A stretch of DNA of 64,000 nucleotides, taken from assembly GCA_019057865.1 (NCBI GenBank), contig JAHLWP010000016.1:17511-81510 (forward strand), written 5' to 3'. The notes below the pieces were generated by a model, which ran no database searches, was not told the origin of the DNA, and saw only the letters and a program-made list of their open reading frames with translations. Every line of letters begins with the position of its first letter. Within the stretch, counting starts at the first letter, position 1. This DNA is from Promethearchaeota archaeon. GTDB lineage: Archaea; Asgardarchaeota; Lokiarchaeia; Sigyniarchaeales; SOKP01. Both the position numbers and the translations under genes were made by a program. Of the stretch, positions 7,347-13,204 are shown in pieces.

Positions 7347-7811
7347 CTATCTAAGTGGCTTTTCTTTCTTACCAGTTAAAAGTGCTTGTAGGCTCACACC
7401 ATTTACTTTTACAACTCTCCACCTTACTCCAGGGAGATCACCGATAGCTCTCCCTTTAGCTCCACCAATACCTTCTAATAGAACACGATCATGCTCATCA
7501 ATAAAATTAAGCGCTCCATCTCTAGACATTATTAGAACTTAATAATGTACTCCAGGTAGAAACGCTGTAATAGTCTTTCCATTTTTCTTTAATTGTACGC
7601 GTACACACTTCCGAATAGCTGAATTGGGTTGTTTACTCTCCCGACCAACTTTCTGTAGCACGATACCTAGGGCTTGTGGAGCTCCTTCTAAGGGATCAAC
7701 CTTCTGTTTTAATTTGAGCTTTTTCCTTTTATATTTTGATTTAGACCAGCGAAATCTTCTTCGATTTTTTCTTAATTGTCGTGCGGCGTATAATCCTTTT
7801 GGTTTTCCTAT
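7347..7811 (-). CDS. rps12: 30S ribosomal protein S12 (uS12), two exons 7811-7550 and 7519-7347, 144 aa after splicing; probable ATA start
   Basis: [15 protein letters not shown]...AFLPG in one ORF and [11 protein letters not shown]...GDLPGVRW in the next; removing 30 nt joins them in frame. Confidence 0.93.
7520..7549 (-). other. Candidate 30-nt BHB-type mRNA intron in rps12
   Basis: In-frame TAA; perfect 9-bp hairpin ACATTATTA/TAATAATGT; 4-bp helix CUGG/CUAG with bulges AG|U and AG|A. Confidence 0.85.
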
Positions 7812-7927
7812 TTTGAACACCAAATAACAATATTTTAATTATATTATAATGTGAGAAAATATCTCATAGAACTTAAAATTTATGAATATTATAAATATCT
7901 TAAATAGAAAAGAATGAGTTCTTCTGA

Positions 7928-8407
7928 TTAAAAATTATTTTTTGTATTAATTATTACATTATCTACTTCAAAGTACCTTAAAACTAGTTCTTTTATTTTT
8001 CTAATCATACTACCTTCTTTACCTATTGCTTTTCCACGATCTTGGGGGCGAACAGAGATAATAATAGTTTTCTTTAGATTCTTACTCTCTTTAATTTCGA
8101 TATTTTGGACTTTTATGGCATTCTTGGTAGTATTTAAGATATTTTGTATAAACTGGTTAAGATCTTCAGAAAATTCGATGACATCTATATTCTTTTGAAG
8201 TCTTGCCTTTAAATCTTTTACATGTTCTCCAGCTTTTCCAATTGCTTTACCTACATCTTCTTTTTTTACTAAAAAGATAACTACTTCAGAATTATTTTCA
8301 GGAGATCTGAAAATTAGACAGTCTTTTATTATAGCGCCAGATATATTATTGAATAAGGAAATAAGTTCCATCGATTTTTGATCAATTCTAATATGTTTTC
8401 TTAACAT
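7928..8407 (-). CDS. nusA: Archaeal NusA (KH domains)
   Basis: Two GKAIGK KH motifs; lies between L30e and S12. Confidence 0.95.
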   Translation of the reverse strand: MLRKHIRIDQKSMELISLFNNISGAIIKDCLIFRSPENNSEVVIFLVKKEDVGKAIGKAGEHVKDLKARLQKNIDVIEFSEDLNQFIQNILNTTKNAIKVQNIEIKESKNLKKTIIISVRPQDRGKAIGKEGSMIRKIKELVLRYFEVDNVIINTKNNF

Positions 8408-8423
8408 TTTTGAACCAATTAAG

Positions 8424-8804: not shown

Positions 8805-8999
8805 TATCTTCTCAAAAAGTATCTTTTAGTTGACTAATAGTAATTATAATTTATACTTGAATTTAATTTTTTGTTAGTTTATGTTATTTCTTCATTTATA
8901 TTAACAATATTTTTTCTATAATAATATTTTTTAAAGAATAAGTGAAAATTTAATTAAATTAACCTAAATTATTAGTAAATGCTATAAATATGCTTATTC

Positions 9000-10199
9000 T
9001 TACTTTTTGAGTCTCTTCTTTAATATCTCCAAATTTCGGTCAAGATCGAACATGATATTTGTTCTCCCCGTGCCAATCGGAATAACCTGACCTATAATGA
9101 CATTCTCGGGAATTCCTCTAAGGAGTTCCTGTTCTCCGTAAAGCCCTGCATCCAGTAATTGATTGACTGTGACTTCAAAAGCGGCTCTTGCAAAGACACT
9201 CGATTTTGAGCCTGAAATTCCATGTCTTCCTATGGATTGAATTGATCCAGTATGACACATTAAATCTGCTAAAATTAGTAAGTGCCTTAGATCAACATCT
9301 AATCCTTGTTGTTCAAGGACTTTTTGTGCTTCAGTAATAATCATCTTACGTGCAGCTTCTATACCGTATAGTTTTTCTATTTCATGGATATGATTTGAAA
9401 CTGTTCTTGTTGTATCCACTCCATCAATTTGAATTACCCCTTGCATGTTTGTACCTTCAGTTTTTATTACCCATTCTTCATTATTGTCTGAAGGTGTTAA
9501 TAATCCTCTTTTTACTCCTCTAATACCTTTTACAACTTTTTTTAGGATTTTTTCTCTTAATTTCTGTAAACTCTGAAGATCTTCAATTCCAGGATCAATA
9601 ATGATCGTGTTTCCTTCTCGCTTAATTGTACCTTTTTTCTTATATCTTTTTAAAATTTCAGGGATTTGGTCAATATCTATTCCTTTCTTCTCACAAATTT
9701 CAGTGATGAGATTAATATGAATTTGCCAATTTACAAAATCAAGATCTACATCATGTGTAATCTGTTCAATTCTAATTTGTTCTATACGATTATGAACCTT
9801 AATTGCTTCCTCTTCTGTTTTATTATAAGGTTCTTCTAAGTAGATAGTCATTTGTGGAGTTGAGGGAAAACGCCTAGCATCTACAATTTCAATCAAGCGT
9901 GGAAGACCCTGAGTAACTGAGAACTCTTCAACACCTGCATAATGGAAAGTTCGAAGAGTCATTTGGGTTCCAGGTTCACCGATTGATTGAGCTGCAACTG
10001 TCCCGCATGGTTCATTTGCTTCCATTAATGAGTTATTATAATTAATAAATACTTTATTCAAAAGGTATTCCAATTGTTCTTCTTCTAAATCTACATCTTT
10101 TACTTTTTCTCGAATTTTTTCGATTAAATCGTCTGGAATACCATCATCTAATAAAACATTTAATTGTTCTTCTAAAATTTTAGGTGTTACTTTAGCCAT
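9000..10199 (-). CDS. rpoA2: RNA polymerase subunit A'' (Rpo1C)
   Basis: [33 protein letters not shown]. Confidence 0.98.
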
Positions 10200-10205
10200 A
10201 TTTAT

Positions 10206-13204
10206 CTACCCCATTTTTTCTTTTTTCCATTCTATATATCCTTTAGTTTCTTTCCCACGCCATATAGATTTTTTACCTGTTTCCTCCTCATATTGTTTCT
10301 GGAGAGCTTCCTCATCATGAATTTTTGCTTCTACTTTTTTAGGTTTTTCCTTAACAGCCACTTTTTTTGGTTTCTTTTCAGTAACTTCTTCAATTTTAAT
10401 TTCTTTTTTCTTCGCAGGAGGAGCTTTTTTAATTTCAGTACGAATCTTTTCGACATCAAGAGCTTTTGCTTTAAGGAGCAAAACGTCTAAATTAACCGCA
10501 TCCCCATGATCTGTATGCATTACATCAACACCATCATCGCCAAAGGCGAACTGGATTATATTTTTATCAGAATTCCTTACAGTTCCATCATTTTCAATTA
10601 CCATATCCTGTAAAGCATTAACAAGCCTTCTCTGCATATATCCAGATGTGCTTGTACGTACTGCTGTATCAACAAGGCCCTCTCTTCCACCCATTGCGTG
10701 AAAGAAAAACTCTACTGGTTTTAATCCATTACGATATGATGATGAGACAAATCCTCTAGATTTAGGACTAAGATCATTAACCTTAAAATGTGGAAGTGTT
10801 CTAAGGGCATATCCACGATTAATTCTTTCTCCTCTGATTGCTTGTTGTCCAACAACAGCAGACATCTGACCTAGATTTAAAATATTACCTCGAGCACCGG
10901 ATTTTGTCATGATAACTGAATGCGCCTTATCCCCAATATAATCTGCTGCAAGTTCTTCGGCTTCTTTACGGGCTTCAGCTAATACTTGTCGTATTCGTAA
11001 TTCTAAAGTTTCTTTCATAGAACGTCCAGGAGCTCTTTTCAATATTTTAGTATCATTTTCATAAAAAGCTCCTATAAGTCTTTCAGATTCGTCATTAGCG
11101 TCTTTTAATATCTTTTGGATGGCTTCAAAAGCTTTACCTTTAACATAAACTTCATCTAATCCCATTGTCATTCCATTTTGGCGAATAACATGTAATAACA
11201 TTTTTGTTGCGCTATCTAAAAATTGCCTTCCTCGCGCATTGCCATGATCCTTAATAATACGTTGTAAAATGCTATTTGACTGCATAGCACCAAATGAATT
11301 CTCATCAATTGTGCCAGTTATTAAATAACCATTTTTAATTTCGACATATGCATCATAGGGACAATCTTCTTCTTCACATACATTACATTTCTTACAGAAT
11401 TTCGATCTTACCCTTATATTTAAGTCATCAGGAAATAAAGTACTAAAAATCTGCTTACCGGAATACATAATTTCAGGATCAGTAACTGCTGGTTCTAATT
11501 GATCCAAACTAAAATCAGGATTATTTTCAAAAATATCTCCAAGATACAATAATTTCAATGTGCTTTTTTTATTGTATAATGCGTCTTTACTCGTAAATTG
11601 GAAAACACTTGATATAAAATCTTGAATCCCTCCTAATATTGGCCCACCAAATCGGGGTGATAATATATGTTCTTGAACCTTAAGTAATAGTTCTGCCTCT
11701 GTTCGAGCTTCTTCACTTTGAGGTACATGTAAATTCATTTCATCACCATCAAAATCTGCATTATAGGGAGGGCATACAGTTAAATTTAACCGAAATGTTT
11801 TACCATCCATAATTTTAACTTCATGAGCCATTATCGACATCCTATGGAGTGAAGGTTGTCGATTAAATAAAACCAAGTCTCCATTACTTAAATGGCGTTC
11901 AACCGTAAACCCGGGTGTTAACATATCAGCAATGATCTTTCGATTTTTTACATACCGAAGATCAATTCTTCTACGATCATTTCGTATTATGTAATTAGCT
12001 CCTGGATGTCTATAAGGACCACTTAAAACCAGCTGTTTCATTTCTTCAATATTCCAATCATTAACATTAGTTGGAATGGTTAAGATTTTAGCAATTTCTA
12101 TTGGTACTCCAACTTCATTAATACTAATGTACGGGTTTGGAGATATTACACTTCTTGCTGAAAAATCAACTCTTTTACCACTTAAATTACTTCGAAATCT
12201 TCCTTCTTTACCTTTTAATCTTTGAGTAAGCGTTCTAAGTGCTCGACCAGAACGATGTCTGGCTGGAGGGATGCCCGAAACTTGATTATCAAGATAAGTA
12301 GTAATATGATATTGTAATAATTCCCATAAATCCTCAACAATTAGATGAGGTGCTCCTGCATCAATATTTTCTCTTAATCGTTGATTAATTCGAATAACAT
12401 CTACTAATTTATGGGTTAAATCATCCTCAGACCGAATACCACTATCTAGTGTAATTGATGGTCGTGCGCATACAGGAGGTATAGGTAATACAGTAAATAT
12501 CACCCATTCAAGTCGTGCATTTTCAGGAGAAATACCGAACGTCCTGAGATCGATATCAGTCATCTTCTTTAATCGTTCTAGAATCTCAATAGGTGTTATT
12601 CGCCGAGAGCCCTTCCCTTCTTCCTCCTGGTAAAACGTTGTAGGTTTTTCAATTATAATTTTTTTCTTTTTAGCTCCACAATAAGGACATACTTTACTTT
12701 TTCTAGCGCGTTTGAATACAAGCTTAGCAGCATCTTCATCTCCTTCAAAAAATAATTTTCGATGCTTGATTTGCTCTTGTCTGAATTTCTCTTTTTCTTC
12801 TTCAGTGAGCATTAATCTTGAGCATTCGGGACAAATTGAACGTAAAACTTTTAAAACTTTCTTTGCATAACCTACATGAATAACTGGACGGGCAAGCTTT
12901 ATACTAAGGCCTCGAAATGAGGCAAAAATCTCTCTATTTAGACTTTAGGGGTGAGAGGCCCCAAAAAATGCCCGAAATGCCCCATACAATTACTCACGAG
13001 ATTTCCACAAGTCTGACAACGTTGTCCTGGTTCAATTGTCCCAAGTCTTTGATCCATTAATCCACTCGGAATCGGAAGACCATCCTCATCATATGTGTCA
13101 GCAGTGATAATTCGTGCTGCTGACATTTTTCGAATCTCATCAGGACTAAGTAAGCCAAACTTGATTTTTTCTATCAGCTTCGTTCTTGAAAATGTATAAC
13201 TCAA
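10206..13204 (-). CDS. rpoA1: RNA polymerase subunit A' (Rpo1N), two exons 13204-12969 and 12903-10206, 977 aa after splicing
   Basis: 5' part [15 protein letters not shown]...CQTC...CMGHFGH; 3' part [12 protein letters not shown]...CPEC...NADFDGD; removing 65 nt restores the frame. Confidence 0.95.
12904..12968 (-). other. Candidate 65-nt structured mRNA intron in rpoA1 (relaxed BHB/BHL)
   Basis: Frameshifting insert with TAA inside the His codon of GHFGH-I; internal stems UGGGGC/GCCUCA and CUCUC/GAGAG; boundary ambiguous by 1 nt. Confidence 0.8.

Follow-up and report, generated by a model that had tools for sequence, protein, structure and literature searches.

Candidate bulge-helix-bulge introns within the RNA polymerase subunit A' and ribosomal protein S12 genes of an Asgard archaeon

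Introduction

The pre-mRNA of the crenarchaeal pseudouridine synthase gene cbf5 carries an intron of the bulge-helix-bulge (BHB) type (Watanabe 2002; Yoshinari 2006; Yokobori 2009, PMC2738675), and in the literature searched this is the only archaeal coding sequence for which endonuclease-type splicing is documented. The present analysis concerns a 64,000-nucleotide (nt) stretch of DNA from a Promethearchaeota archaeon (GenBank assembly GCA_019057865.1, contig JAHLWP010000016.1, positions 17,511 to 81,510), hereafter the window, in which the genes for RNA polymerase subunit A' (rpoA1) and ribosomal protein S12 (rps12) are each interrupted by a short insert. These inserts are very probably archaeal BHB introns of the tRNA type, situated in protein-coding mRNA and predicted from their sequence to be spliced out. 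In the literature searched, neither Asgard protein genes nor rpoA1 or rps12 are reported to carry BHB introns.

The cbf5 system is the closest described counterpart. It likewise places a short intron in an archaeal protein-coding gene with its boundaries in a BHB motif; the intron has been tied to a hetero-oligomeric splicing endonuclease (Yoshinari 2006, as listed in PMC5829648), and its gain and loss among related species are described (PMC2738675). The case described here differs in its host, an Asgard lineage of Loki type, in the genes concerned, which encode RNA polymerase A' and S12, and in the use of several sites per gene within the genus. It differs further in its tandem introns, which enclose a 4-nt micro-exon and by implication are removed one before the other, and in that splicing is predicted rather than read from reverse transcription PCR.

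Asgard tRNA genes are heavily interrupted according to a recent preprint (10.64898/2026.10.13.758758), which does not contain the word mRNA, mentions protein genes only as neighbours for locus matching and reports two EndA paralogues in 44 of its 60 genomes. The multiple and non-canonical tRNA-gene introns of Thermoproteales and of Asgard archaea, for which many apparently independent gains are reported (10.64898/2026.10.13.758758), share the motif, the enzymes and similar lengths with the inserts described here, whereas in the present case the host RNA is an mRNA and the motif's exon half has to consist of codons. The same motif and the same EndA are reported at archaeal 16S/23S pre-rRNA processing sites, and the 16S rRNA gene introns of Thermoproteales (e.g. 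PMC4496867) are a related case; the substrates there are structural RNAs, and the reports compared do not concern a coding sequence. By analogy with these pre-rRNA and 16S introns, the introns described here should leave as small circles.

In eukaryotes, HAC1/XBP1 splicing likewise removes a short intron from an mRNA by means of an endonuclease and independently of the spliceosome. There, Ire1 rather than EndA makes the cuts, within stem-loops rather than a BHB, and the present locus gives no sign of regulation. In vivo, RtcB is able to splice HAC1 mRNA (Tanaka et al. 2011, listed in PMC5829648).

The predicted rps12 intron

Both interrupted genes belong to one minus-strand cluster, rpoA1-rpoA2-rpl30e-nusA-rps12-rps7, in which rpoA1 spans positions 13204-10206, rpoA2 10199-9000 and rps12 7823-7347. 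The genome is a metagenome-assembled genome (MAG) of 4.26 Mb in 87 contigs, with an estimated completeness of 99.7% and an estimated contamination of 5%, and it holds a single copy of rpoA1 and of rps12; no intact second copy of either gene was found in it. Outside the inserts the two genes are intact, free of frameshifts and stops, and 94-98% identical to relatives, and their Pfam profile positions continue across the breaks (Rpb1_1 2-74 and 74-312; S12 2-54 and 57-108). The starting observation of the original prediction, that two otherwise intact genes each carry a stop-containing insert inside a conserved motif, is thereby borne out. The inserts also share no sequence with each other, as it had stated, and a search of the 4.26-Mb genome at E <= 0.05 revealed no further copy of any of the introns, each matching itself alone. 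Since each is unique in the genome, the introns are not copies of a repeat.

In rps12, the conserved TAFLPG is followed by 30 nt with an in-frame TAA, after which the conserved reading resumes. Under the BHB cut rule used throughout, each exon-intron boundary falls after the second nucleotide of a 3-nt bulge, and two such bulges flank a 4-bp helix. Analysis reveals that the insert (7549-7520) fits the canonical motif in the single register that repairs the protein. Specifically, the central helix (H) pairs CUGG (7555-7552) with CUAG (7525-7522), the bulges read AG|U and AG|A, and the intron stem (h') comprises 9 bp, ACAUUAUUA/UAAUAAUGU, with the loop AGUUC (scan i=13, L=30, h'=9). The intron has U as its first base and AG as its final bases. 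Exon 1 (7550-7823, minus strand) ends in CCU GGA G and matches the Pfam profile Ribosom_S12_S23 over positions 2-54, while exon 2 (7347-7519, minus strand) begins AU GGA GCG, coding (D)GA, and continues the S12 profile over positions 57-108. Removal of the 30 nt (7520-7549, minus strand) would give CCU GGA G|AU GGA, that is PGDG, rebuilding the conserved AFLPG|DGALNF; the predicted spliced product is TAFLPGDGALNF.

Such a fit is rare by chance. In this genome, the rate per fixed position and length is 1.7e-3 for h' of at least 3 bp, and 7.5e-6 for 4 central pairs with h' of at least 9 bp. In addition, no more than 0.4 kcal/mol separates the BHB-constrained fold from the minimum free energy. 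The rps12 insert is a textbook BHB intron by its geometry, and its excision is predicted on that basis. The same intron occurs in the related genome G055 and locus L071 with one substitution in the loop (loci labelled L are operon loci or scaffolds and those labelled G are genomes, G000 being the genome of this window).

Two probable introns around a micro-exon in rpoA1

The interruption of rpoA1 is more elaborate. After CMGHFGH come 65 extra nucleotides carrying stops and a frame change, and then the conserved reading resumes. Exon 1 (12968-13204, minus strand) has a TTG start preceded by GGAGG, ends in GGG CAU at the GHFGH motif and covers positions 2-74 of RNA_pol_Rpb1_1; the downstream exon, numbered exon 3 (10206-12898, minus strand), begins AG CUU GCC, coding (E)LA, and runs to the stop, resuming the profile at position 74 and containing Rpb1 domains 1-5. 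For the insert between them, a pair of introns (30 and 35 nt) with the 4-nt micro-exon AUAG in the middle is a better reading than a single intron.

Intron A (12967-12938, minus strand; 12938..12967) fits the BHB motif with a central helix of GGGC (12973-12970) and GUCU (12943-12940) and with bulges AU|U and AA|A (i=15, L=30). Its stem, UUUUGGGG/CCCCUAAA, has an h' of 3 + 4 bp flanking one U-U mismatch, and homologous introns occupy the same site in L118, L145, L095 and L105. Intron B (12933-12899, minus strand; 12899..12933) has the central helix AUAU/GUAU (the latter at 12904-12901), bulges AG|A and AA|A, and an inner hairpin GCCUC-AUUUC-GAGGC. With wobble pairs allowed, the central helices of the rps12 intron and of rpoA1 introns A and B each form 4 of 4 pairs. 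The putative micro-exon (12934-12937, minus strand) would supply an Ile codon and the first base of a Glu codon, as indicated by both BHB registers together with the IELARP of orthologues.

Removal of both introns would produce GGG CAU AUA G|AG CUU GCC, or GHIELA, and thus the predicted product GHFGH-IELARP. IELARP is present in all 25 uninterrupted orthologue loci compared, and four alleles that read IKLARP naively become IELARP under the BHB cuts. The two-intron reading therefore gives an invariant GHFGH-IELARP.

The geometry of intron B carries a further implication. Its AUAU strand is composed of positions 12969-12968 of exon 1 and 12937-12936 of the micro-exon, so that the strand crosses the intron A junction. 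In the unspliced precursor only 3 of the 4 central pairs of intron B can form, as demonstrated for L118. Because the intron B motif is complete only once intron A is out, an ordered removal, A and then B, is implied, in which the micro-exon would stay covalently attached throughout. Were the micro-exon lost as well, 69 nt would be missing and exon 3 would be read in a shifted frame.

Related candidate introns across the genus

The comparison set comprised 81 operon loci of the genus, this window counted, and rps12 was additionally searched in 54 genus genomes. Introns in rpoA1 occur in 8 of the 81 loci including the window, at three sites and with lengths of 30, 31, 30+35 or 85 nt; seven carriers have them at the GHFGH site and one, L149, at codon 48. 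For rps12, introns occur in four genomes at two sites. Three of these are among the 81 loci, namely the window and L071 at PG|DG and L086 at PGV|R. The 54-genome search yielded three carriers (G000, G055 and G067), of which G055 is the extra one, its PG|DG insert having the same sequence as that of L071.

At the GHFGH site the elements appear singly or together. A 30- or 31-nt intron stands directly after GGN CAY in L095, L105 and L145, an 85-nt intron lies 4 nt further downstream in L106 and L089, and the combined 65 nt are found in the window and L118. Since relatives carry A alone or B alone, the two halves of the rpoA1 insert exist as separate units. The short forms have H GGGC/GCCU with an h' of 7 in L095 (30 nt), H GGAC/GUCU with an h' of 4 in L145 (31 nt), and a 10-bp stem with one mismatch in L105 (30 nt). 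Both introns of L118 (30+35 nt) are canonical; its intron B homologue is strictly so, with h' AGAA/UUCU (4 bp) and h of 3 bp (i=19, L=35). The 85-nt forms of L106 and L089 are canonical as well, with H AUAU paired to AUAU or GUAU, h' UGGU/ACCA and h of up to 5 bp (i=19, L=85; h' 4 and h 5 in L106).

In rps12, L071 has the same intron as the window, while L086, which corresponds to G067 C14, carries a 30-nt intron with H GCGU/GCGU at the second site, PGV|RYK. The codon 48 insert of L149 (DEDGL|PIPS, 30 nt) has 3 of 4 central pairs and an h' of 7 bp; it fails the strict BHB motif and fits only with the three central pairs, as worked out by hand from the sequence. The BHB cut rule recovers the conserved protein in every carrier, for L149 with the relaxed central helix. 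Altogether, 13 intron instances at five sites in two genes have a BHB at the protein-restoring cuts, 11 of them canonical or one stem mismatch short and 2 relaxed.

The insert-free orthologues differ from the carriers by exactly the intron, with nucleotide precision. Furthermore, the stems vary by compensatory changes. Between the window and L118, intron A has GGGG/CCCC against GAGC/GCUC and the hairpin of intron B has GCCUC/GAGGC against GGGCG/CGCCC; between L106 and L089, CUUC/GAAG is replaced by CCUC/GAGG. On the exon side, GGGC has become GGAC in L145 and its pairing with GUCU is kept. The alignment of orthologues that the original prediction had proposed as a check thus yields both nucleotide-precise presence and absence and covariation. 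The carriers come from assemblies with different accession prefixes and isolate names, and both inserts are real.

Outside the genus, genomes G027, G029, G031 and G033, from another family of the order, have shorter open frames. Introns at the GHFGH site were considered as the cause and rejected, as all four read an uninterrupted GHFGHIELARP.

Splicing enzymes and proposed pathway

The genome encodes the enzymes that such a pathway would use. Two EndA paralogues, encoded at G000 C71:81560-82162 and C69:38262-38885 and 29% identical to each other, each score over the cut-off for Pfam PF01974 and PF02778; in the alignment, EndA alpha has the Tyr/His/Lys residues and EndA beta lacks the His. There is one RtcB, at 561 bits. 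Asgard EndA is reported to be an (alpha-beta)2 enzyme, with an L1 loop insert linked to a broad substrate range (PMC5829648), and the two paralogues fit this description. ARAGORN detects only 18 tRNA genes in this nearly complete genome (estimated at 99.7%), 12 of them with introns, and two of the calls are doubtful, having "introns" of 876 and 1582 nt. Most tRNA genes of the genome are probably too interrupted for detection.

In the proposed pathway, the transcript of the rpoA1-rpoA2-rpl30e-nusA-rps12-rps7 cluster would fold locally so that the boundaries fall in 3-nt bulges around a 4-bp helix. The heteromeric EndA alpha and EndA beta endonuclease would cut after bulge nucleotide 2, RtcB would ligate the exons, and the intron would probably be released as a small circle. 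In rps12 a single 30-nt intron would be taken out; in rpoA1, intron A would be spliced before intron B. The geometry, cut registers, protein restoration, presence and absence with covariation, the enzymes present and the single gene copies were computed directly, and from these we infer cleavage, ligation, the order of splicing and circular introns. The proposal that EndA/RtcB-type splicing acts on mRNAs for core transcription and translation proteins thus has strong comparative support in the 13 BHB instances, the presence/absence pattern, the compensatory changes, the enzymes and the single copies, with excision itself as the predicted step.

Several results weigh against this interpretation. 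The 8-bp exon-exon helix of rps12, AGCGUUUC/GGAGCGCU, is separated from the motif by a small internal loop. In the window, intron B has a relaxed motif: a G-A mismatch stands where its intron helix should begin, leaving only GAG/CUU with one bulged A, whereas its homologues are canonical. For introns A and B, holding the fold to the BHB costs 3.6-5.6 kcal/mol relative to the unconstrained minimum, the value for B being 3.6. Exact patterns of the spliced junctions, of rps12 and of doubly spliced rpoA1, had no match among metagenome contigs of the Joint Genome Institute (JGI). Additionally, a genome-wide scan for a strict BHB within open frames, a check that the original prediction had also suggested, returned 1604 true-register matches against 1494-1622 for frame-shifted controls and thus no excess; stricter stems and shorter lengths likewise gave no excess over the frame-shifted controls. 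Closely spaced genes on the same strand swamp the signal of the scan, and its strict rule also overlooks both introns of this finding, so that it yields no estimate of how many genes are spliced.

Patchy distribution and mosaic flanks

On a tree of RpoA1 and RpoA2 the carriers are scattered, and the nearest sampled relative of each has no intron. Intron A, with 5 carriers, requires at least 5 changes on this tree, and intron B, with 4 carriers, at least 4. The flanking sequence is itself mosaic. Between the window and its sister L070, identity is 83.8% in rpoA1 exon 1 and 97.8% in exon 3, and the best match of the window's exon 1 is L118, the other carrier of both introns. Similarly, the 5' side of rps12 is nearest to the intron-bearing L071, while the sequence past the 3' end of the gene is nearest to the intron-free L070. 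This pattern suggests recombination breakpoints at or near the introns.

A further comparison is provided by L157, a metagenome scaffold from ENA that is 97.7% identical to positions 4001-12786 of the window over 8.8 kb and whose rps12 lacks the intron. In this scaffold a 100-N gap (L157:1947-2046) covers exactly rpoA1 exon 1 and the introns, and strain-level intron polymorphism that breaks the assembly could account for it. A search with rps12 exon 1 found no identical protein among known proteins. The nearest full-length S12, P0004, differs by 3 residues over the aligned parts and comes from a DNA scaffold of the 97.7%-identical relative without the intron. P0004 was considered as a spliced product and rejected, its source scaffold being simply intron-free, which is evidence of polymorphism and not of splicing. 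Collectively, these comparisons suggest an exchange of intron-bearing and intron-free alleles by recombination among close relatives.

The distribution bears directly on the idea, part of the original prediction, that the splicing step also gates the synthesis of RNA polymerase and ribosomes. Such a role would suit the position of both interrupted genes in one core operon and the truncated products expected from unspliced messages, and it has an analogue in HAC1/XBP1 splicing, which is a regulated stress switch in eukaryotes. A conserved regulatory device should, however, persist, whereas introns are absent from 73 of the 81 operon loci for rpoA1 and from 51 of the 54 genus genomes for rps12, the rps12 intron is missing from the relative with 97.7% DNA identity, and the nearest relatives of each carrier are intron-free on the RpoA tree. 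Gating is unlikely and gains no support here, the introns being patchy even at that nucleotide identity and coinciding with recombination mosaics. They look like tolerated, recombination-exchanged elements rather than regulators.

A wider reading can be offered tentatively. The genus may harbour a dynamic population of EndA-spliced mini-introns in its protein genes, essential ones included. Homologous recombination or a homing-like process would carry them from one species to another along with short stretches of the neighbouring exon, and they could come to lie so close together that a 4-nt micro-exon is kept only if splicing obligatorily follows one order. This reading is possible, although it is less probable than not.

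Alternative explanations of the inserts

The rpoA1 insert had been predicted to be one 65-nt intron with a relaxed BHB or bulge-helix-loop, cut at CA|U...AG|U to give GHFGH-IKLARP. A relaxed motif can indeed be drawn: H CGGG/CCUU forms 3 of 4 pairs, the bulges read CA|U and AG|U, and three U-G wobbles plus one U-A pair make up the intron helix UUUU/GAGG. The (alpha-beta)2 EndA is also credited with cutting relaxed motifs (PMC5829648). For the homologous insert of L118 this drawing does not work, as no intron helix adjoins the bulge, and the two-intron reading is canonical there. It also places Lys where all 25 uninterrupted loci have Glu, which the BHB cuts restore in all carriers, and there are relatives in which intron A stands alone (L095, L105 and L145) or intron B does (L106 and L089). 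No canonical motif with L = 65 exists in the insert; the nearest canonical one (GGGC/GCCU, L = 63) yields a stop. A single intron is very unlikely on these grounds. The claim that a BHB sits at the exact repair cuts accordingly stands for rps12, with its canonical motif and U...AG ends, and does not stand for rpoA1 taken as one intron, just as its product IKLARP gives way to IELARP.

Ribosomes could in principle bypass the inserts by programmed hopping or recoding of the phage T4 gene 60 type, with no mRNA splicing at all. Every insert holds a hairpin and an early stop, and in rps12 a GGA codon precedes the insert with a second GGA 36 nt downstream. A hop from GGA to GGA would nevertheless delete the conserved Asp-Gly of PGDGA, and in rpoA1 no take-off codon has a matching landing codon that would yield the conserved product. 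Bypass would also leave unexplained both the lengths of 30, 31, 35 and 85 nt and the fact that in 13 unrelated inserts the repair boundaries come after the second base of a 3-nt bulge, with a 4-bp helix between the two bulges. This mechanism is highly improbable.

Assembly or binning artefacts and decaying pseudogenes are the least probable of the explanations weighed. In their favour, the sequence comes from a MAG whose contamination is estimated at 5%, and in L157, from the 97.7%-identical relative, the 100-N gap spans precisely rpoA1 exon 1 with the introns. The same or homologous inserts nevertheless recur in the separately deposited L071, L118, L089, L106, L095, L105, L145, L086 and L149, which argues against an assembly artefact. 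Neither gene has a second copy, both are essential, and no frameshift or stop occurs in them outside the inserts, whose stems keep their pairing through compensatory changes, unlike decaying sequence. The size of the inserts and the absence of the generally known hallmarks exclude self-splicing and spliceosomal introns, and a repeated mobile element, such as an insertion resembling a miniature inverted-repeat transposable element (MITE), is ruled out, no intron having a second copy in the genome.

Other interrupted genes and neighbouring features

Further interrupted genes were chosen by conserved motifs and then checked with Pfam. At least one more protein gene is split likewise. An EF-2/EF-G-like GTPase (G000 C82:40874-40903, minus strand, locus L156) contains a 30-nt BHB insert with a 9-bp stem between QMTDSD and DEEQERGITI, and its GTP_EFTU domain is divided into profile positions 3-37 and 49-187. 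Three others look so. BHB inserts of 29-32 nt at C60:11315-11343, C75:14727-14758 and C7:117703-117732 (L154, L155 and L153) lie in a zinc alcohol dehydrogenase, an alpha/beta hydrolase and a thiolase-like gene, respectively. The dehydrogenase is split at KRCG|ICGSDVH and the hydrolase at HPHP|QFGG, and the downstream pieces of these two begin at Pfam positions 15 and 12, consistent with split domains.

Within the cluster, rpoA2 (subunit A''; 9000-10199, minus strand) and rps7 (6717-7334, minus strand), the final gene of the cluster as examined, are uninterrupted. Between rpoA2 and rps12 lie a gene of the ribosomal protein L30e/L7Ae family (8424-8804) and one for an archaeal NusA-like KH protein (7928-8407), both on the minus strand. 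A divergently transcribed neighbour of rpoA1 (13594-14214, plus strand) encodes 206 amino acids with a weak C-terminal zinc ribbon and no other family match; no sign of a nuclease domain, as might mark a homing nuclease candidate, was found in it.

Significance

By implication, the mechanism documented for cbf5 here extends to the largest RNA polymerase subunit and to a universal ribosomal protein. The two are encoded by single-copy genes of an Asgard archaeon, and the rpoA1 introns lie only 4 nt apart. Gene callers split or truncate such genes and would in this case give an 88-amino-acid and an 868-amino-acid "RpoA1" and two S12 fragments. In Asgard genomes, such calls distort estimates of completeness, trees built from marker genes and counts of pseudogenes. 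If the introns are spliced as predicted, the cell would need its tRNA machinery to splice mRNAs accurately in order to grow. With their patchy distribution and mosaic flanks, the introns make gain and loss in coding genes tractable among the closest prokaryotic relatives of eukaryotes. Should the tentative reading of a dynamic intron population be true, the genus would offer a prokaryotic mRNA intron-exon system in which to test how cells tolerate, order and perhaps exploit splicing without a spliceosome.

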